A stretch of DNA of 64,000 nucleotides from Blastocatellia bacterium. Its GTDB lineage: Bacteria; Acidobacteriota; Blastocatellia; UBA7656. Location: assembly GCA_035649735.1 (NCBI GenBank), contig DASRIZ010000305.1:14998-78997 (forward strand), written 5' to 3'. The notes under the pieces were generated by a model. That model was not told the DNA's origin. It was given only the letters and a program-made list of their open reading frames with translations, and did no database searches. A program made the translations under genes and the position numbers. This document shows, one piece after another, positions 14,220-63,827 of the stretch; position 1 is the first letter of the stretch; each line of letters begins with the position of its first letter.

Positions 14220-15536
14220 ATGATGAATCAAATCTATATCCGTGACGTATCGAAGCACGTCGGCGAAGAGATCACTCTCAAAGGCTGGCTCTACAACATG
14301 CGCTCGAGCGGCAAACTCATGTTTCCGCAAATCCGGGACGGGTCAGGAATCATCCAGGGCGTAGTTTTCAAGAAGAATGTCCCGGAGCAAGTGTGGAGCG
14401 ATTTTGAGAAGCTCACCCAGGAATCCTCAATAATCGTTACCGGCTCCGTTCGTGCCGACGAGCGGGCGCCGGGTGGTTACGAAATGGACGTTACCGGCGT
14501 CGAAGTCGTCCAGGTCGCTCACGATTATCCGATCACTCCCAAAGAACACGGTGTCGAGTTTCTGATGGACAACCGGCATCTGTGGCTAAGATCCAAACGG
14601 CAACACGCGATTCTCTCGATTCGAGCAGAGGTGATCCGCGCCGTTCGCGATTTCTTCGACTCGAACGGATTTCTGCTGATGGATACGCCAATTTTTACAC
14701 CTGCGGCGTGCGAAGGCACGACGACCTTGTTCGAAGTTGATTACTTCGACGACAACAAAGCTTATCTCACGCAATCGGGTCAGCTCTACAACGAAGCGAC
14801 GGCTGCGGCGTTCGGTAAGGTGTATTGCTTCGGTCCGACGTTTCGCGCAGAGAAGTCAAAGACCCGCCGGCATCTGACAGAATTCTGGATGGTTGAGCCG
14901 GAAGTTGCCTATGCCGAGCTCGATGACATCATGAATCTCGCCGAGGAGTTCATAACATTCATCGTGCAGCGAGTGCTCGAAAATCGCCGCAAGGAACTGA
15001 CAGAGCTCGAACGCGACATTTCAAAGCTGGAGAAGATCGCGCCGCCGTTTCCGAGGCTGCCTTATGACGATGCGGTAAAGATGCTTCAGGAGGCACACGC
15101 GAAAGGCGAACTTCAGGAACGATTCGAATGGGGCGGCGACTTTGGGGCGCCCGATGAAACTTATCTATCGAACCAGTTTGATCGCCCGGTAATGGTCCAT
15201 CGTTACCCGGCGGCGGTGAAGGCATTTTACATGAAGTCGGACCCGAATAGGCCCGATCTCGCGCTGTGCGTTGATGTGCTTGCTTCCGAGGGCTATGGCG
15301 AAGTGATCGGTGGCGGCCAACGGGCGGACAACCTTGAATACTTGTTGAAACAGATTCAAACACACGGATTGCCGGAAGAGGCGTTCGACTGGTATCTCGA
15401 CCTGCGAAAATACGGAACGTTTCCACACGGCGGGTTTGGCATGGGCATCGAGCGCTGCACGTCGTGGCTGTGCGGCATCGAACACATTCGAGAGACGATT
15501 CCTTTTCCGAGGATGCTCTACAGATTGAAGCCGTAA
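14220..15536 (+). CDS. asnS: Asparagine--tRNA ligase
   Basis: Class IIb synthetase motifs: [25 protein letters not shown] and [10 protein letters not shown]. The 438-aa short AsnRS architecture. Distinction from archaeal-type AspRS rests on the [11 protein letters not shown] motif. Confidence 0.85.
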
Positions 15537-54789: not shown

Positions 54790-55257
54790 TTTTGTTCCTC
54801 CTGGCAGCCTAAAGGTCTCACCGCTCAGTCCACACATTTCAAAGCACGAGCCTCTTTACTGGGAGAGATGCTCGCACAATGGGTACGCAAATAATTCTAC
54901 GGCTTTCAGCGTGAGCTTGCCATTCGCTGCTGGCGCACCCTTAAAGTCTGGCCGGTTTATCACACGTTGAAGCCCGTTCGTCACAATCTTATTCCGCCAC
55001 CAGCCACTTGACTTAGAATGGTCCGTCTACGTCTGACGCTGGAACTTTGCGGTTTGCAACGTAAACGTGAAGCAATTTCAAGGCTCATTTCGCGTAATAC
55101 GTAGCGGTTGCAAATACACCAAGGGTTGAAGTAAGCCGACGGGGCCGCACTCGTCGTTCGCACACGATCTAATCTCAAGGGGAAACAATTAGCTCTGCGG
55201 TTTGGGTGCTGCCGGCCAAGGCGAGCACCGTTAGCACCGCTTGGAGTGGTGGAAAAA

Positions 55258-56454
55258 ATGGAGCCGACTCCGATGGATTGTGCTATTGTGTTTGCACATA
55301 AAGAGCTGACCTCGGGAAACAGAGAAGCTACCGTCGAAATGGGTATTGGCAGGTTATTGCAACGGAGTTGGGTTCGCGCGGCGTTGATCATCGGGGCGTG
55401 GACCGTCCTGGCTGCATTCCTTACAAGCCAGATGTATCTCGCTTACAGCCGGCGCGAAATACCTATTCGATGGGAGAGGATCTTCCTCGTTGAGCTAATT
55501 TACGCTTACATTTGGGCCGCGCTCACCCCGTTGATCTTGTGGCTGGCGCGCCGTTTTCCGATCGAGCGCTGGAAGTGGATTCGCAGCATGCTGGTACACC
55601 TCGGCGTGTCCCTATTTATCGGGTTTTCAACACGCGTCCTGCACGATTTGATGCTTTTTTATGTGGTCTCCGACGCCGAGTGGAAGTTCTCGCTAACCAA
55701 ACTATTGATGAACGTCTACTTCATGACGGATTACGGGGTGATGCTTTACTGGCTGATACTGCTGATCAGCTATTCATTCAACTATCAACGCCGCTATCGA
55801 GAAGGAGAGGTGCGCGCGACCCGTCTCGAAGCACAGCTGGCGCAGGCGCAGTTGCAGGCGCTCAAAATGCAGCTTCATCCTCATTTCCTGTTCAACACTC
55901 TCCATTCGATCTCGGCGTTGGTGCATAAGAATGCTGATGCAGCCGACAAAATGATCGCCCGTTTGGGAGACTTTCTGCGGTTAACCCTTGAAAACTCGGG
56001 CGCTCAGGAAGTATCGCTTCAAGAGGAGCTCGAGTTTCTGAAGTGCTATCTGGAGATCGAGCGTATCCGATTTCAGGATCGTTTGACCGTGCAAATGGAC
56101 ATCGAGCCGCAGGCGTTAGACGCACGGCTGCCGAACCTGATTCTGCAGCCAATCGTTGAGAACGCGATTCGTCACGGTATTTCTACGCGAACAAGCGCCG
56201 GCCGGATCGAGATAGAAGCGCGGCGGTTAAACGGCACTCTTCAAGTTCAAGTAACCGACAACGGGCCGGGACTTTCCTCTGATTCAAACACCGGCAGCAT
56301 CGTAAAAGCGGGTGTTGGACTCGCAAATACCCAGGCCCGTCTCAAGCAGCTCTACGGCGCCGAGCACCGATTGGACCTGTCGAATGCCGCCACCGGCGGA
56401 CTCAGCGTTATCCTCGAAATACCGTTCCGCGAGCACATATCCACTCAAAACTGA
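55258..56454 (+). CDS. Sensor histidine kinase, LytS/YehU family
   Basis: Multi-TM N-terminal half, the QLHPHFLFNTLHSI H-box typical of PF06580-type kinases, and an HATPase region (NAIRHG, DNGPG, GVGLAN). Start uncertain: GTG at 55246, ATG at 55258, ATG at 55339. Confidence 0.85.
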   Translation: MEPTPMDCAIVFAHKELTSGNREATVEMGIGRLLQRSWVRAALIIGAWTVLAAFLTSQMYLAYSRREIPIRWERIFLVELIYAYIWAALTPLILWLARRFPIERWKWIRSMLVHLGVSLFIGFSTRVLHDLMLFYVVSDAEWKFSLTKLLMNVYFMTDYGVMLYWLILLISYSFNYQRRYREGEVRATRLEAQLAQAQLQALKMQLHPHFLFNTLHSISALVHKNADAADKMIARLGDFLRLTLENSGAQEVSLQEELEFLKCYLEIERIRFQDRLTVQMDIEPQALDARLPNLILQPIVENAIRHGISTRTSAGRIEIEARRLNGTLQVQVTDNGPGLSSDSNTGSIVKAGVGLANTQARLKQLYGAEHRLDLSNAATGGLSVILEIPFREHISTQN

Positions 56455-56498
56455 ACTTCCGGCAAGGGGCCTGCGTTAAAGCCGGTAAGGAGAAGTCG

Positions 56499-57278
56499 AT
56501 GTCAGGCTCGGCGTGTATCCGTACCGTGATAGTGGATGATGAATCGCTCGCGCGCGAGCGGATTCGCAACATGCTCGGTTCCGATCCACGGATTGAGGTC
56601 ATCGCCGAGTGCTCCAACGGCCAGGACGCAATCGAAGCGATTCAACTGCATTCGCCCGAATTGGTTTTCCTCGACGTAGAGATGCCCGGGATCGATGGTT
56701 TTGGCGTCCTGGAAGCCCTCCCCCCAGATCGAATTCCCACCATAATTTTCGTCACTGCATACGATCAGTACGCGGTGCGCGCCTTTGAGGTCTACGCGCT
56801 GGATTATCTTTTGAAGCCATTCGATCAGGAGCGGTTCGATAAGGCGCTTGAACGCGCCAAGTCCCAGATATCGACCCAACGAACCGACTCATTGAGCGAA
56901 CGCATCCTGAGCGCGCTTGAAGAAATCAAAACCAGGCCCGTTCACCTGGAACGACTGGTCATTAAGATGAACGGCCACGTTTTCTTTATAAAGGCCGAAG
57001 AAATCGATTGGCTCGAAGCGGAGGGAAACTATGTGCGGCTTCACGCCGGTAAAGAATCCTATCTGCTGCGAGACACTATAAGCGCGCTGGAGTCGCAGCT
57101 TGATCCAAAGAAGTTTATACGCGTCCACCGATCCGCGATCGTCAACATCGATCGCATTACCGAATTGCAGCCCTGGTTCCACGGCGAGTATCGCATAATC
57201 CTCAGCGAGGGCGTTCAGTTGACTCTCTCTCGCACATACAGAGAGAAGTTGCACGACCTTTTGGGGAGACCACTCTAG
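56499..57278 (+). CDS. LytR/AlgR-family response regulator (receiver + LytTR DNA-binding domain)
   Basis: AAGGAG RBS. Receiver motifs VDDE, FLDVEMPG and a conserved K. LytTR domain (IDWLEAEGNYVRLH...FIRVHRSAIVN). Confidence 0.9.
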   Translation: MSGSACIRTVIVDDESLARERIRNMLGSDPRIEVIAECSNGQDAIEAIQLHSPELVFLDVEMPGIDGFGVLEALPPDRIPTIIFVTAYDQYAVRAFEVYALDYLLKPFDQERFDKALERAKSQISTQRTDSLSERILSALEEIKTRPVHLERLVIKMNGHVFFIKAEEIDWLEAEGNYVRLHAGKESYLLRDTISALESQLDPKKFIRVHRSAIVNIDRITELQPWFHGEYRIILSEGVQLTLSRTYREKLHDLLGRPL

Positions 57279-57514
57279 ACCTGTCTCGACAAACTGAAAT
57301 TTTGTCTGACGTCTCTCGTCACGGATTTCGGTCAGACCATCACGGAGTCCTCCCCCTTCATCCCAAAGTAGTTCTTCGAAAAACTAACTCAACCTAAACT
57401 CCATCAGTAACGGGCGCGCGTTCGGGCGGGTACGCGCGCATTGTTAACGCCCGCGCCAATGCGAAGGCGGCAATTTGGTTTAGCGCGGCACACCTTGACC
57501 GGTTGGAGTTGGTC

Positions 57515-58159
57515 ATGAAAAGGATTGTGCAATTCGTCGCTTCTGCCGTCTTGCTAACCATAACCACAGCGCCGGCGCGCGGTTTCAGCATAACCGCCAG
57601 TCTCGCCGCGACGCTGCGACAGGCTTGGGGTTCAGGCTTGAGCCTGCGTTCTCAGTTGGAAAATGAATCGAAGCCCGAACTCCACGCGCTTTCGGATGCC
57701 GCCGCCCCGTCAACAGCACACCCAAATCGCTCAGCCCGTTTAAGCCCGGCGGAGTTCGCTATATTAACATTTGATAAGCAAACGATTGAAGCATTTGGCA
57801 TTGCATGGCGACGCTCGGGCAACGGGTCTCTGCCTCTGGAAGGAGTCGTTCTGATCCTGCAAATGGCGAATGGCGGGTACAGCGGCAGGGAGATGGGATC
57901 AACAAACGAACATAAAAAATTCACATTTAGATGGCACCCGGCAACGATAGCAATCGTACACACTCATCCAAACTTGTCTGATCCCCGACCACAGCGAGAA
58001 GACATCATGATCGCCGACCAGCGACAGGTACCCATCTTCACGATCACCAGCAGAGGCATGCACGTGTATGATCCGTTAACCAAAAAGATTTCTGCTGTCA
58101 TGCGGAATCTTGATTGGCTCGACATTTCGAATTGGCGGAAGCTATCCGCAAGGCAATGA
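57515..58159 (+). CDS. Secreted JAB/MPN-like protein with degenerate JAMM motif
   Basis: ORF trimmed to the ATG at 57515 (GGAG upstream). Signal peptide MKRIVQFVASAVLLTITTAPARG. PLEGVVLI then HTHPNLSDPRPQRED (57959-58003), resembling the RadC/JAB motif HxHPxxxxxPSxxD. Confidence 0.6.
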   Translation: MKRIVQFVASAVLLTITTAPARGFSITASLAATLRQAWGSGLSLRSQLENESKPELHALSDAAAPSTAHPNRSARLSPAEFAILTFDKQTIEAFGIAWRRSGNGSLPLEGVVLILQMANGGYSGREMGSTNEHKKFTFRWHPATIAIVHTHPNLSDPRPQREDIMIADQRQVPIFTITSRGMHVYDPLTKKISAVMRNLDWLDISNWRKLSARQ

Positions 58160-58429: not shown

Positions 58430-58458
58430 GGGGAGCCCTCTCAGGCTCCCCTTTTTTT
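58430..58458 (+). terminator. Strong plus-strand Rho-independent terminator with no adjacent plus-strand CDS
   Basis: GGGGAGCC-CTCTCA-GGCTCCCC stem-loop (58430-58451) followed by TTTTTTT (58452-58458). The nearest upstream plus-strand CDS ends at 58159. Confidence 0.75.
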
Positions 58459-58496: not shown

Positions 58497-61400
58497 CTAT
58501 TTCAGCTGAGTGGTTGGGTCGCCGAACAGGATCCAGGTTCGGCGAACATCACTGTCGGTTACCCGGGACTTGGCTCGCATTATCAGTTCGCCAAGCGATC
58601 CTCCGTTCGAATTGCTGCTCTCAAAGATAAGCCCGTACAGCTGTTGGTTCATCTGCGATTGACCTCCAGGCAATGTCATTCCAGATGAAGCCCAAACAGC
58701 TATTGCGCCGCCCTGCTCCGCCTTCATTAACGACTCAGCAAGGCTGTCCAACCCCGTGTCCTGGAAGTAGCCGTTAAGACAGGTCATCATCACAAACAGC
58801 GGAAGGCGATCGCCGTTGTTCAAACCCCTCGCTTCGGCTGAAGTCAACAAACTATTCCGCCACACATCGACAGATCCGTGTCCGAAGTAGTTGACGATTC
58901 TCTGGCCGCGTTTGATACCATCGAGCAGCGCCTTCTTCGCCGCAGCGGTCCCGATCTGGCCGCGATCAATCCGCTCTACCGGAACATCCGGCGGAACTAA
59001 CGCTCTCAACTGATTGTTGGCGCGCTCAAAGTCAAATCCTTCATTGCTATCGCTAGCCAGGATCACGCCGCCTGAAGCCGGTCGCGCCTCATAGTTCATA
59101 ATTTTGGCGACGATCCGCGCGGCTTCATCGGCGCCGCGAACGGGCAAGCGGCCAATGGCCATTTCTGCGACGCCGCTGGACGTGAAATCCGCAAACCAGT
59201 CGTCGCTGGCCGTTTCCATATTCCTGGCGTCGAACAACTTTGTCGGAACGAGATCGAAGTCTCCGCGACCGAGATAGTCTTTCGGGTCGAAAGTGGCATC
59301 TCCCATGAGCAACACGAATCGGGGAGCAAGCTTCCAGTTAGATTTCGCGAAGGCGAGAAACTCTCTTATTGCGTAGGCGCTTCTGTTGCCAAAGCTGAAC
59401 TCATCAAAGATGTCTTCGGCATCCACAAGAGCGACTCGAAGCCCCCGGCTCTCGCGGTAGGCTTGAAGCTCCTTCGCACTCTCGAAGAGGCTGCGATGAG
59501 TTATTATCACCAGATCGGCTGCCTGGTTCGACTGTCGCCAATTTGACGGGACGTTAGCTGCCACGGATGATGGCGGCTGCACCTTATCATTCGTCAAAGC
59601 GATCAACGTCCTGAAGTCGCTCCCAGGGACCGTGAGCGAGACCTCAAACCCATTCTTCTGCGCCCGGACAACTCCGACGACCTCTTGCACAGCCTCTGGA
59701 TTGGTCACGTCAAAGACGCGAATGGAGCTGCCCCTAAAACCTGAGACAGTGAGCTCCTGTTTGCCGGCGGCTCGGAATTGCAATGCATCATCATCTGCGG
59801 TGAAGGTGTGGTTGTAAGTCGCGCGTATGTAATCCAAAAGACTCACATCCGCTTCGCCCCGTTGAGCTGCCAATCTAACGACGTTTACTCCCTCTCTCAG
59901 CAGAGCTCTTGAGACGGGGAGCTTCGCCGAATACGAACTCTGTCCGTTGAAATCGGCTTCACCGACTACCGCGCCGTTGAGAAAAATCTTTACCGTATGC
60001 TGGGCCGGGGTTACGCCCTGAAGAACAACTTCGAGCATAGCCGGGCCCGCCGCCTTCGCATCGACGTTTCGAAGCGTAAGCGTCTGATCTATTGGGCTTA
60101 CAGTCACAACCGGTCCGAAGAAATTCTCCTTGTCCCCGTTTCTCAGCCCTGAGAAATAGAGCGTTCGATCTTTTCGCTCAACGGTATAAGCGAAGCTCGA
60201 TGACTCGGCTGGCGGCGACCCGCTCTTCAGTTGCTCGATACGCAAGCCCGGCGCTGATCCGGCAATGAGCCAGTAAACGCGCGAGTTGGTGGAAGAAGTG
60301 TCGAGCCCCGTCCCGTAAAACTCGATCGCATCAGACGGTCCAAACTCCGAGCCCCCGTGTTCCGCCTTCCCCGTAACCAAGATTGGCTGCTCCCGGCCAT
60401 CCACAAAAAGCTGGAGGAACCGCGCATCAACTTTGGGATCAAGCCCTGCGCTAACCAGCTCGGGTTGGGTGACCCTGTACAAACCTTCGCGCTTGATTGT
60501 GATCTTTACCGCCTTTTGTGAGGCCGGGTTTGCGCCGGTCTGGATCTGCGCGCCCGCCAACTGAACCGATTCCGTCTTAAGCTCGACCGGTCGTGTCGGG
60601 CTTTCCTGAATCTGATCTCTACCGAGCATACTGAGCATTATGGCCTGGCGTTCTCTGGTTACAGATCGCTTTTTGCCGTTTTCACTTTCAATAGTGACCG
60701 GTCCGTGCCATGTGCTTTCTCCGTTGATGTTGATCTCTTCGAGCCAGTACTGGGCGTTCTTATGCTGAAAGCCGCGGTCATCCCACCACGAGTACGAACG
60801 TCCGGCGGAAAGCTTTGTGCCGGCGCCGGCGACGAGTGCTGACCCGGCAAGCATTTGAGGATTCAAACGACCGCGTTCGCCGTTTGCTTCTCGGTAGATG
60901 TTGAACCCAAGGTTGTCGACTTCTTCGCCGGTCTGCCAACGAAGCAAGACCTCACCGTCATAACCGCTTGCTTCAAAACTGTCGAGTTTGGCCGCGGTCG
61001 GGCCAAGAGTGAAGCGCACAACCGAAGGATCGTGGTCGCTCGACTGCACAACAAACTCCGAGTTGACATGCACAATGTCATAGACAAAAGGCGCGGCGTT
61101 TAGATTATTGCTAACCATAATGTGATCGAGGGTCTGCGCGTTGCCTTCAAAATTGTAGCTGTAGCGCTCGCTCTGCGGTAAGGATTCAACGAGTGCGGTG
61201 AGCACCCCGCCTTTCAACGTGTTGCCAACCGTAGAGAACTCGAAATCGTTGATGTCGCCGAGCACTACGATATTCGCGCCCGTATCAACGGCGAGGATGG
61301 CATCGACAAAGTTATTGACTATTTGGGCCTGCTGATTACGCGCCGTTTCGCTTGACCTGACCGGCGGCTGGCGATGCCCAAAGAGCGGATCATCCCCGCC

Positions 61401-63827
61401 TTTGGAATTGAAATGGTTCCCGATGATAAACAGCTTATTGCCGTTGAAAACGAACTCGCCCGCCAGCGGCTTACGGCTGCTGTTGAAGGCAGCGTTGGTA
61501 GGTTCAACACGCCCGGGGCTGAAAGACAACTCCGCGGAACCCATGTTGTTGACCACCGTGGTTGCGGTAGTTGAGCCGCCGCCCGGCCTGTCTATAAACG
61601 AGACGCCCCGATCAGTTCTATACATGAACCCCTGGCGAATGTTTCCGCCGGGTTCGCCACCGTCCTGATTGTTTACGGGATTAATCTGGCGGAACTGATA
61701 AGTGGGGCCACCAGCGGTCACAATCGCTGCGATGAGCGTGTTATAGGTGGTCGTTGCGTCAACCGTCCCATCGTTTGTCGCTCCGGTGTTGTCCTGAACC
61801 TCCTCGACACAAATGATATCCGGAGATTTGAGGTTGTTGACGATCAGTGACGCGAGTGTATTGAACTTAGGCGCACCGTCGCTCGGGTCCAGATTCTCGA
61901 CATTGAAAGTAGCAATGGCGATCTCGTTGGTGGTCTGCGTAGTTGTGACCTCTTGCGTGAGCCCGCCGGAAACTCCGGTCAGCGCTGTGGTGATATGGAT
62001 CCTGTAATTGCTAAACCCATAATCCAGAATTCCAATAGCCGGGCCTGAAAAATGATCGCCCACATTGACGGTGGGAGTGCTCGCAAATAGATCGTCTATG
62101 TAAATACGCTCCGGGTTGAAGTCGTTACTGCGAATGACAATGCCACCTCGTGCGGTTCTTACACTCGCATTCGCGCCATCATCGCCCAGAACTGGTGTGT
62201 CACCGAAGTCGGTAGTCGGGCCGACGGCTACAGGATTATTGAGCTGCACACGCATCCCCTCGAGGCTCTCGTAGAAATCAATCCCGTCTGTTGCCGGATC
62301 AAAAGTACCGCTTGTTTCGACGTCACCAGCAGCGTCATCATCGATGACCGACATCGGCGGGATGCGGCCACCGGTGCCGATCACTATAGGCGGAGGAAGT
62401 GGGTTGCCGGATGACTGTAGCGCGACTGTCGGTGTTTGGATCTCAGTGATGGTCAAGTCCGCGGAGGAAGGACGAAACTCAGCCACAGTCCCACTCACAG
62501 TAACTGAGTTGCCCACGACAGCGGCCGCGGGTGGAGCGGAGCTCGTGAAGACAAAGATGCCTTCTGATGTAGCGTCGTCGCTGTCGGGGGTTGGGTCCTG
62601 TATGTAGAACCCATTGCTTCTCACCGCTGTCACGATGCCAGGTATATTCGATACGACCATCGCTAGCTGCACCGATATGTGACTCGACCCCTGGATATCA
62701 TGAATTCGCGTCGCTACCGGCGGCAAAACGGTAAGTGCGATCGATGTGTTACCGGTTCGCATTTGTGCATCGGTGATCGTTATTGGGAGGTTTTTTGCGC
62801 CGGGTGGCGTGGCAATCCCAACGTTGGTCTGGAAGGAAAAGATATTGTCACCCAGCGTCATGTCGCCATTTGTTGCGTCATCGAAAAACTGCTGAGTCAT
62901 GCTTCCGCCGATGGAGCTGAGGTCTCCCGTAACGCCAAGACCAGTGCTCGCTGGATTGGTGCCCGGCGTAACCGTTACCGTGAGCAGCGTCGCGCCCCCC
63001 TGCATTACCGAGTTTGGACTTGCGTTGCCGACGCCCGACGGGTTGGTGGAGCCCCCGCCCATGCCGGTAACACTTATATCGTCGATACCAATCCACTCGT
63101 CCGACCCGACGGCGTCTGTCGTAATGATGCGAATTTGGACAATAGACTGGTTTTCGGCGGCGACAGGTAGAGTTGCGCTGACAGGTGTGACTAAGGTGGC
63201 CAGGCTTGGTCCCGTACTGGCATCAGCCACAAAGCCCGCCGGAACATTTGTAAAACTGCCGGCCGTGCCAACACGGAATTGGAGCGCTACGGGCTGGACC
63301 GAATTGTCGGTCGAGCCGTCTATATCTCTGAGGTTGTACGCGACATTAATAGTGTTCAGCCCGGTAGTATTAACGTGGAGTTGAATGTATGGAGCTCTTG
63401 CGGTGCCCGAACCCTGAAGGGCAACCACCGGATTTGTAATCTCAAATTCGCTGACGCCCCCGGTCGTAAATGTGTTGGGAGCGGTCTGGTTCGCGTTAAC
63501 GTCAACAACGATACTTTCAGCCACAACGGTCTGAGGGTCTACGCCGGTGCCTCCGGTCAATCCGTCTCCGCGAAACCCCACTACGCCCGGGACTCCGGAC
63601 CAATCATCGTTTAGAGTAATCAGGCCTATGTTCGTCCAGTTCTGGCTAAACGGCAGGGACTGAGCGATGTTGTCCGCCCGGACAACCAGCGATAGAAATT
63701 CATGAATAGGACCACGCGCAATAAGCATGCACAATATGAGTACAAGCAGCTTGGGTGTTGACCCGACAAACTGTGCGAATGAGTGAGCGGACTGCTTCGG
63801 GGGCATTGCGTTCTGTCGTTTAATCAT
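58497..63827 (-). CDS. Giant secreted fusion protein: ExeM/NucH-type extracellular nuclease (EEP domain) + C25 (gingipain-like) cysteine peptidase
   Basis: N-terminal TM/signal segment. ExeM/NucH-like N-domains. EEP region about aa 636-941 (61005-61922: IATFNVENL ... SDHDP). C25 region about aa 1436-1776, with NYFGHGSVDVW (His near 58878-58880) and LFVMMTCLNGYF (Cys near 58779-58781). Confidence 0.9.
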   Translation of the reverse strand: MIKRQNAMPPKQSAHSFAQFVGSTPKLLVLILCMLIARGPIHEFLSLVVRADNIAQSLPFSQNWTNIGLITLNDDWSGVPGVVGFRGDGLTGGTGVDPQTVVAESIVVDVNANQTAPNTFTTGGVSEFEITNPVVALQGSGTARAPYIQLHVNTTGLNTINVAYNLRDIDGSTDNSVQPVALQFRVGTAGSFTNVPAGFVADASTGPSLATLVTPVSATLPVAAENQSIVQIRIITTDAVGSDEWIGIDDISVTGMGGGSTNPSGVGNASPNSVMQGGATLLTVTVTPGTNPASTGLGVTGDLSSIGGSMTQQFFDDATNGDMTLGDNIFSFQTNVGIATPPGAKNLPITITDAQMRTGNTSIALTVLPPVATRIHDIQGSSHISVQLAMVVSNIPGIVTAVRSNGFYIQDPTPDSDDATSEGIFVFTSSAPPAAAVVGNSVTVSGTVAEFRPSSADLTITEIQTPTVALQSSGNPLPPPIVIGTGGRIPPMSVIDDDAAGDVETSGTFDPATDGIDFYESLEGMRVQLNNPVAVGPTTDFGDTPVLGDDGANASVRTARGGIVIRSNDFNPERIYIDDLFASTPTVNVGDHFSGPAIGILDYGFSNYRIHITTALTGVSGGLTQEVTTTQTTNEIAIATFNVENLDPSDGAPKFNTLASLIVNNLKSPDIICVEEVQDNTGATNDGTVDATTTYNTLIAAIVTAGGPTYQFRQINPVNNQDGGEPGGNIRQGFMYRTDRGVSFIDRPGGGSTTATTVVNNMGSAELSFSPGRVEPTNAAFNSSRKPLAGEFVFNGNKLFIIGNHFNSKGGDDPLFGHRQPPVRSSETARNQQAQIVNNFVDAILAVDTGANIVVLGDINDFEFSTVGNTLKGGVLTALVESLPQSERYSYNFEGNAQTLDHIMVSNNLNAAPFVYDIVHVNSEFVVQSSDHDPSVVRFTLGPTAAKLDSFEASGYDGEVLLRWQTGEEVDNLGFNIYREANGERGRLNPQMLAGSALVAGAGTKLSAGRSYSWWDDRGFQHKNAQYWLEEININGESTWHGPVTIESENGKKRSVTRERQAIMLSMLGRDQIQESPTRPVELKTESVQLAGAQIQTGANPASQKAVKITIKREGLYRVTQPELVSAGLDPKVDARFLQLFVDGREQPILVTGKAEHGGSEFGPSDAIEFYGTGLDTSSTNSRVYWLIAGSAPGLRIEQLKSGSPPAESSSFAYTVERKDRTLYFSGLRNGDKENFFGPVVTVSPIDQTLTLRNVDAKAAGPAMLEVVLQGVTPAQHTVKIFLNGAVVGEADFNGQSSYSAKLPVSRALLREGVNVVRLAAQRGEADVSLLDYIRATYNHTFTADDDALQFRAAGKQELTVSGFRGSSIRVFDVTNPEAVQEVVGVVRAQKNGFEVSLTVPGSDFRTLIALTNDKVQPPSSVAANVPSNWRQSNQAADLVIITHRSLFESAKELQAYRESRGLRVALVDAEDIFDEFSFGNRSAYAIREFLAFAKSNWKLAPRFVLLMGDATFDPKDYLGRGDFDLVPTKLFDARNMETASDDWFADFTSSGVAEMAIGRLPVRGADEAARIVAKIMNYEARPASGGVILASDSNEGFDFERANNQLRALVPPDVPVERIDRGQIGTAAAKKALLDGIKRGQRIVNYFGHGSVDVWRNSLLTSAEARGLNNGDRLPLFVMMTCLNGYFQDTGLDSLAESLMKAEQGGAIAVWASSGMTLPGGQSQMNQQLYGLIFESSNSNGGSLGELIMRAKSRVTDSDVRRTWILFGDPTTQLK

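Follow-up and report, generated by a model that had tools for sequence, protein, structure and literature searches.

A conserved fusion of an extracellular nuclease to a PorU-like C25 peptidase module in Blastocatellia

Introduction

Why would one exported protein carry both a nuclease and a cysteine peptidase? The question is raised by a gene in a 64,000-nucleotide stretch of DNA (hereafter the window; positions 14,998 to 78,997 of contig DASRIZ010000305.1, assembly GCA_035649735.1) from a Blastocatellia bacterium of the Acidobacteriota. The gene is a single uninterrupted open reading frame (ORF) of 1776 amino acids plus stop, located at positions 58497-63827 on the minus strand, and an earlier sequence-only reading had described its product as an ExeM/NucH-type extracellular nuclease fused to a gingipain-like C25 cysteine peptidase. 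Blastocatellia are abundant soil oligotrophs, and little is known about how they acquire carbon, nitrogen and phosphorus from dead biomass. Necromass made of DNA and protein, or biofilm matrix, could be broken down by a conserved exported protein that combines a DNase with a cysteine peptidase, which makes the present one a concrete candidate for this task.

The explanation that we favour, with moderate confidence, is that the protein is an exported, bifunctional extracellular nuclease-peptidase built on a peptidase chassis that is shared by a whole family. We first present what is observed, namely the domain organization with its intact catalytic residues, the conservation of the fusion, the family of paralogues and the lack of matches to a type IX secretion system (T9SS); the role of the peptidase part, for which several explanations can be weighed, is discussed thereafter.

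Domain organization of the nuclease-peptidase protein

The protein was divided into the following parts (the slash in the signal motif marks the predicted cleavage site).

63675..63827, minus strand: predicted signal, residues 1-51, with a hydrophobic core at 26-37 and then V-R-A/D-N (hydrophobicity and aligned N-termini)
63063..63674, minus strand: Ndom, residues about 52-255, predicted β-jelly roll resembling carbohydrate-binding modules (CBM), no Pfam model
62709..63062, minus strand: immunoglobulin (Ig)-like linker domain, residues 256-373, common to some relatives, no Pfam match
61923..62708, minus strand: oligonucleotide/oligosaccharide-binding (OB)-fold DNA-binding region of the SpnA/ExeM/NucH type, residues 374-635, from the alignment to SpnA 9SF9
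61008..61922, minus strand: endonuclease/exonuclease/phosphatase (EEP) catalytic domain, residues 636-940
59511..61007, minus strand: β-sandwich domains, N-terminal in the PorU-like module, residues 941-1439, no Pfam match
58500..59510, minus strand: Peptidase_C25 catalytic domain, residues 1440-1776
58878..58880, minus strand: codon of the catalytic His1650, aligned with RgpB His211
58779..58781, minus strand: codon of the catalytic Cys1683, aligned with RgpB Cys244

All motifs quoted in the sequence-only reading are present in the 1776-residue translation, namely RIHDIQG (starting at residue 374), FYIQD (407), VSGTVAEF (444), ATFNVENL (639), GDINDFE (857), SDHDP (930), NYFGHGSVDVW (1646) and LFVMMTCLNGYF (1677). 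Pfam searches gave no match for Ndom, the Ig region or module residues 940-1440.

The nuclease half is well supported. Exo_endo_phos (PF03372) was found at residues 639-932 with 40.5 bits against a cut-off of 24.5, and residues 374-939 match the SpnA chains 9SF8/9SF9 over 566 residues (E 1e-104). These chains are cryo-EM structures of Streptococcus pyogenes nuclease A (SpnA), an OB-fold plus DNase-I-like nuclease with an LPXTG anchor (PMC13601614). The EEP domain that had been placed at about 636-941 and the OB-like ExeM/NucH region in front of it, with which the SpnA alignment begins at residue 374, are both borne out. Across 24 aligned fused orthologues, N642, E676, H805, D858, N860, D901, H902, D931 and H932 are invariant, and H805, D858 and D901 lie in the same motifs as in SpnA (NH-x-NSK, LGD-x-NDFEF and TLD-x-I). 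The NCBIfam model ExeM_NucH (NF033681) matches residues 396-924 with 143 bits, below its cut-off of 300.

The order of an OB-fold region followed by a DNase-I-like EEP domain with its catalytic His/Asp motifs is that of SpnA, ExeM, Xds and NucH. The namesake of the family, Shewanella ExeM, requires Ca2+ plus Mg2+/Mn2+ as well as both its OB-like and EEP parts (PMC6085458). Like these nucleases the protein would be exported, and by analogy with ExeM a dependence on divalent cations is expected (PMC6085458). It differs from them in what follows the EEP domain: the short LPXTG signal stands there in SpnA and the GlyGly-CTERM anchor in ExeM, where it adjoins the EEP domain directly (PMC6085458), other homologues have RTX repeats or a C-terminal transmembrane (TM) helix, whereas the present protein continues into an 837-residue peptidase module. 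A second difference from ExeM lies at the N-terminus, where ExeM has an LTD domain and the present protein a CBM-like domain without annotation.

The N-terminal export signal claimed earlier was recovered as the hydrophobic core and the adjacent V-R-A/D-N. The pattern V-x-A/[DN] directly in front of Ndom recurs in orthologues and in paralogues that consist of Ndom and the module, and together with the hydrophobic core it suggests Sec export and cleavage by signal peptidase I, probably after Ala51. Signal-like N-termini are found throughout the family of C25-module proteins. Ndom itself is 60-78% identical in 41 nucleases of the Ndom-OB-EEP type from several phyla and in 14 C25 proteins made of Ndom and the module. 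Judged by source names, the Ndom-bearing ExeM-type nucleases come from Methylomirabilota, Chloroflexota, Cyanobacteria and Bacteroidota; the Ndom-module proteins are ~1077 residues long, and one of them is a paralogue in the window's genome. Such conservation, as far as the aligned sequences tell, is unusually strong for a binding domain. The Ndom model (predicted local distance difference test, pLDDT, 84) shows a β-jelly roll that weakly resembles CBM4/16/22/61 and the cleaved-adhesin domains of Kgp (template modelling score, TM, 0.35-0.45), so that the predicted fold would be of a polymer-binding type.

The PorU-like C-terminal module

The identity of the peptidase half is clear from Pfam: Peptidase_C25 (PF01364) matches residues 1440-1775 with 272.4 bits against a cut-off of 23 (E 9e-81, model positions 2-374 of 374). 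In alignments, H1650 and C1683 fall on His211 and Cys244 of RgpB (1cvr) and on the GHG and TATC motifs of PorU, and both are invariant in 16 paralogues and 24 orthologues, in which the GHG and C-x-N-G contexts are also kept. The dyad contexts named in the sequence-only reading are accordingly intact, and loss of catalytic residues is not seen. The region that phmmer aligned with RgpB stops short of the S1 pocket, which in gingipains is specific for Arg or Lys.

The conserved C-terminal unit is larger than the catalytic domain. BLAST against the genome's own paralogues delimits it to about 837 residues (about 940-1776), which corrects the earlier estimate of about 650. An AlphaFold2 model of this module, built from a 30-sequence alignment (pLDDT 77, predicted TM score 0.72), has a predicted caspase-like α/β fold matching the catalytic domains of RgpB, Kgp and PorU. 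In Foldseek it aligned with dimeric latent PorU (6ZA2) over ~820 columns (E 8e-31, TMq 0.45), but with RgpB and Kgp over only ~375 columns, the catalytic core. The gingipain-like layout that had been proposed thus does not hold beyond this core, and over its 837 residues the module resembles PorU.

β-sandwich domains ahead of the C25 catalytic domain and the aligned His/Cys contexts are common to the module and PorU. The module, however, corresponds to PorU without the last ~350 residues, the C-terminal domain (CTD) included, and bears a large N-terminal head; the NCBIfam PorU model (NF033707) matches residues 1102-1775 with 268 bits, below the equivalog cut-off of 420, and covers only model positions 3-732 of 1095. 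Moreover, there are 16 copies of the module in this genome, in contrast to the single PorU in P. gingivalis. The PorU CTD comprises A1054-Q1158 (PMC11285876). With the gingipains RgpB, Kgp and RgpA the module shares the catalytic fold and the His/Cys dyad, and it resembles RgpA and Kgp in that the protease belongs to a long chain of several domains, β-jelly-roll binding domains among them. Unlike in gingipains, no prodomain, IgSF domain or CTD is present, and the accessory domains are N-terminal rather than C-terminal; Pfam gave no match to Propeptide_C25 or to the Ig-like Peptidase_C25_C.

The protein ends with ...WILFGDPTTQLK, one residue past the C25 domain, and no TIGR04183 match was obtained genome-wide, in agreement with the earlier statement that a T9SS CTD is lacking. 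Searches of the window's genome (8.4 Mb, 98% complete) with TIGR04183, TIGR04189 and NF033710, representing the type-A CTD, SprA and PorV, gave no match, and control genomes were equally silent in two of the three. A T9SS is probably absent from this genome. The possibility that the protein is T9SS cargo or a PorU orthologue was rejected on the grounds that a CTD and SprA/PorV matches are missing and that the hidden Markov model (HMM) scores remain below the cut-offs.

The first domain of the module (residues 941-1050) carries the signature V-L-L-x-W-x-T-G-x-E-V-D-N-L-G-F-N-x-Y-R-E. An HMM of these residues matched C25 paralogues only when run against the window's genome, and a use of this domain as a tag on separate proteins of this genome was rejected on that result. 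Beyond this genome, the nuclease-only homologues P0042, P0062 and P0078 have one copy of the same β-sandwich as their C-terminal ~100 residues after the EEP domain, with the signature ...Y-x-W-x-D...Y-W-L...G-x-x-x-W-x-G-P, which indicates that the domain also travels alone.

Within the C25 domain, a loop at residues 1511-1540 (~59208-59297, minus strand) is rich in invariant acidic residues (D1514, D1525, D1533, E1538, D1542, D1547), and its pLDDT in the model is very low (30-40). A role in metal binding or in regulation (latency) is conceivable.

Distribution of the module

Sixteen Peptidase_C25 matches were found in the window's genome, and all of the proteins end 1-2 residues after the domain. 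The whole module is common to the 16 paralogues at 47-52% identity, and 102 of its positions, including H1650 and C1683, are invariant among them. Their heads are unrelated and comprise a right-handed β-helix/NosD domain, 14 FG-GAP repeats, a DUF5122 β-propeller, Ig, PPC or cohesin/dockerin domains, or no recognisable family; the nuclease head occurs in only one of the 16. The claim that two normally separate modules are fused here therefore stands as far as the fusion is concerned, but the C25 part is not a one-off partner, since it recurs in all 16 paralogues.

A search with the module against 1.84 billion representatives returned 22,516 proteins (clusters) at E <= 0.001. Among the best 150 of these 22,516, essentially the full 837 residues are aligned at 44-63% identity, the module ends at most 6 residues from the C-terminus in 148, and the head length ranges from 0 to about 2100 residues. 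One convincing near head-less member was found (P0218, a signal peptide plus the module), whereas the remaining candidates seem to be gene calls that were cut short. Expansions to at least 10 copies are, within the class, concentrated in the window's own family. By sequence, the module is a family-wide C-terminal chassis on which the nuclease is one of many heads. A family of heads joined to a PorU-like module in a lineage that probably lacks a T9SS is a more interesting object than the single fusion: it is very large in metagenomic data, its heads are interchangeable, and it raises the question of what PorU-type enzymes do before or outside the T9SS, be it as digestive proteases, as self-maturases or in independent surface anchoring.

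Some further observations were made on the paralogues. Two of the 16 C25 matches are the C-terminal ends of genes split across contig ends, one gene stopping on C406 at module-HMM position 226 and resuming on C352 at 221, and the other stopping on C75 at position 39 and resuming on C273 at 37; the assembly seems to have broken at these points because of the repeated module. Four of the 16 paralogues are followed by a small same-strand cassette (C239:7899-14127, minus strand; C468:45926-52164, plus strand; C554:22022-25991, minus strand; C249:3-4301, plus strand), which encodes an HprK-like P-loop protein (~290 residues), a PqqD/RRE-like protein (~160-170 residues) and a nucleotidyltransferase-like protein (~360 residues). 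A Tat-like/TM segment lies inside the RRE-like protein, whose tail reads ...AANCLPSGQGCTSSAQCCSQVCSGGMCA in two of three copies (C239, C554) and is another Cys-containing sequence in the C468 copy. The nuclease-C25 gene of the window has no such HprK/RRE cassette. CadC-like regulators of 750-1100 residues, composed of a winged helix, a TM segment and a TolB-type β-propeller, are located within 8 kb of four C25 paralogues (C273:14994-17321, C40:8076-10325, C560:16059-19379 and C89:12660-15680); as such regulators are common in Acidobacteria, this proximity may be due to chance.

Conservation of the fusion

A protein search retrieved ~27 clusters of 1727-1815 residues with the same architecture and 57-70% identity, each on its own contig. 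They derive from metagenome-assembled genomes of Blastocatellia/Acidobacteriota, in which 'C25 family cysteine peptidase' and 'predicted extracellular nuclease' are the only names given to them. A scan of species representatives revealed full-length orthologues in ten named Blastocatellia genomes, including Mb-scale contigs and 'Candidatus Onstottus arcticum', and a query spanning the junction (residues 601-1100) gave contiguous matches in open frames of 1750-1860 residues in eight further genomes, all of the window's family. Overall, orthologue identities amount to 45-74%. The auto-annotated Blastocatellia proteins, 57-74% identical, are true orthologues of the same architecture that bear automatic names only.

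The same architecture is thus found in at least 18 independent assemblies, several times on Mb-scale contigs, the junction sequence is conserved, and neither GC content nor skew shows a break inside the ORF, so that a chimeric assembly, or a sequencing error or frameshift merging two genes near 60900-61000, can be put aside with near certainty and the in-frame fusion taken as real. In a tree of the module, all nuclease-fused proteins form one clade apart from the other paralogues, which suggests that the fusion arose once and was then inherited vertically. On this comparative evidence the fusion is genuine and old.

An unfused nuclease is encoded in three genomes of the window's family (G046, G101 and G126) by frames of 924-991 residues with 68-69% identity, and one of these genomes belongs to the window's own genus. 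The fusion is therefore patchy within the family, and each half can exist alone. The three genomes offer natural fused/unfused pairs for comparison.

Both kinds of enzyme are already known, and the orthologues are in the databases under automatic names. Literature searches yielded nothing relevant on nuclease-C25 fusions or on C25 peptidases and their expansions in Acidobacteria.

Possible function of the nuclease-peptidase protein

According to the explanation that we favour, the protein would be exported by Sec and its signal removed, probably after Ala51. The CBM-like β-sandwich and the Ig-like domain would then place it on a polymeric substrate or surface, where the SpnA/ExeM-type nuclease, with its OB folds and DNase-I-like EEP domain, would cut extracellular DNA with the help of divalent cations. 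The 837-residue module, with several β-sandwich domains and a clan-CD C25 peptidase whose His/Cys dyad is intact, is always C-terminal and would be the standard chassis of a bacterial family onto which N-terminal heads, the nuclease among them, have been grafted. We infer that the module cleaves foreign proteins extracellularly, and possibly its own precursor as well. By degrading material composed of DNA and protein, for example necromass or biofilm matrix, the protein as a whole would serve an oligotroph that feeds on protein. That the simplest members consist of Ndom and the module, and that the same Ndom heads stand-alone nucleases, is in keeping with DNase and protease being directed together to one material.

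Several points weigh against this explanation. PorU, the best structural relative of the module, is a C-terminal signal peptidase/sortase and not a digestive protease, and many of the heads are giant adhesin-like repeats that look more like surface cargo than like targeting modules. A protein of 190 kDa would have to cross the outer membrane. Furthermore, the nuclease is unfused in related genomes, so that neither activity depends on the fusion.

The same points lead to the alternative that survives best, although we regard it as unlikely. Working in cis or on sister molecules, the module could be a C-terminal signal peptidase or transamidase that needs no T9SS and cuts at the junction between head and module, the head (here the nuclease) being moved to an acceptor on the cell surface or released; the nuclease would be surface-anchored cargo and the C25 part a single-purpose maturation device. 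Clan CD takes in the transamidases GPI8 and PorU. The resemblance to PorU extends over the whole module and is not limited to the catalytic core, the strictly C-terminal position holds in 16 of 16 paralogues and in 148 of the 150 best representatives, and the heads (β-helix, FG-GAP, propellers, cohesin/dockerin, Ig) resemble cargo of sortases or of the T9SS. The module also occupies the slot after the EEP domain in which characterised nucleases hold their anchoring signal (GlyGly-CTERM in ExeM, PMC6085458; LPXTG in SpnA) and other homologues their RTX repeats or C-terminal TM helix, and a junction motif, P-[TS]-A-x-x-L-x-x-F-x-A, is conserved.

These conserved junction residues may, however, merely represent the first β-sandwich strand. 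In addition, PorU works in trans in a complex with PorV, PorZ and PorQ, all of which are probably absent here, a device of ~837 residues that turns over once per molecule would be costly, a near head-less member (P0218) exists, and no acceptor or partner gene is linked. Slightly more doubtful still is the generalization to a T9SS-independent sorting system of Acidobacteria, in which ~16 proteins per genome would each bring their own C-terminal clan-CD transamidase that cuts and couples, or releases, the head. If such a sorting system did exist, the nuclease would be surface-displayed cargo and not one half of a digestive duo. In either case the nuclease head provides an easy activity read-out for the question of what the module does.

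RgpA and Kgp are polyproteins that gingipain activity cuts into catalytic and adhesin pieces. By this precedent, the C25 domain might mainly cut its own precursor at inter-domain linkers to give a free nuclease and a free protease or an adhesin complex. The intact dyad and the weak likeness of the Ndom fold to the cleaved-adhesin domains of Kgp are consistent with such processing, but the junction between the EEP domain and the module is short, conserved and devoid of a flexible linker, the domain order is reversed with respect to gingipains, and neither Propeptide_C25 nor the Ig-like C25_C domain was found. We consider this model improbable.

Finally, the module could be a non-proteolytic scaffold or binding unit, with the nuclease as the only enzymatically relevant part. 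Many C25 homologues are uncharacterised, and the score against the PorU equivalog lies below the threshold. Against this, the catalytic His and Cys are invariant across ~50% identical paralogues and all orthologues and the GHG and C-x-N-G contexts are kept, which makes a purely structural role very improbable.

Genomic context

The nuclease-C25 gene is apparently monocistronic, with 677 nucleotides of intergenic DNA upstream and a convergent gene downstream. Its upstream neighbours are the housekeeping genes PNPOx, YbaK-like and Pta, and with these and the convergent ORF as its flanks a dedicated partner or operon was rejected. A promoter scan upstream of the gene detected no sigma-70-like site, the sigma-70 consensus being uninformative for Acidobacteria. 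When eight window neighbours were searched by tblastn against 76 related loci, no match was obtained, and none of the window neighbours occurs within 6 kb of any of 10 orthologue loci. Among the neighbours of the orthologues only parA/parB recur, and this reflects their place on the chromosome rather than a functional tie.

A pair composed of a His_kinase (PF06580) and a LytTR response regulator is located at 55246-57278 on the plus strand, 1.2-3.2 kb from the nuclease-C25 gene and convergent with it. The sequence-only reading had noted this adjacency correctly and had suggested a functional tie, which found no support. Control of the nuclease-C25 gene by the LytS-like/LytTR pair within a lysis or extracellular DNA programme could be imagined from its short distance. 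The pair is nevertheless convergent rather than co-directional, another ORF and a terminator hairpin intervene, and the pair lies within 6 kb at none of the 10 orthologue loci, which leaves little plausibility to such control. A functional link to any other neighbour was likewise rejected, the neighbours not being kept at orthologue loci.

The region between the regulator pair and the nuclease-C25 gene contains the following feature.

57503-58159, plus strand: ORF of 218 residues between the LytTR regulator and the C25 gene, convergent with the latter, no Pfam match

A strong GC hairpin followed by a T-run (GGGGAGCC...GGCTCCCC TTTTTTT) is present at 58430-58451, in the interval that separates the convergent 218-residue ORF from the stop of the C25 gene (58497). 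It is oriented for the plus strand and may serve both convergent genes.

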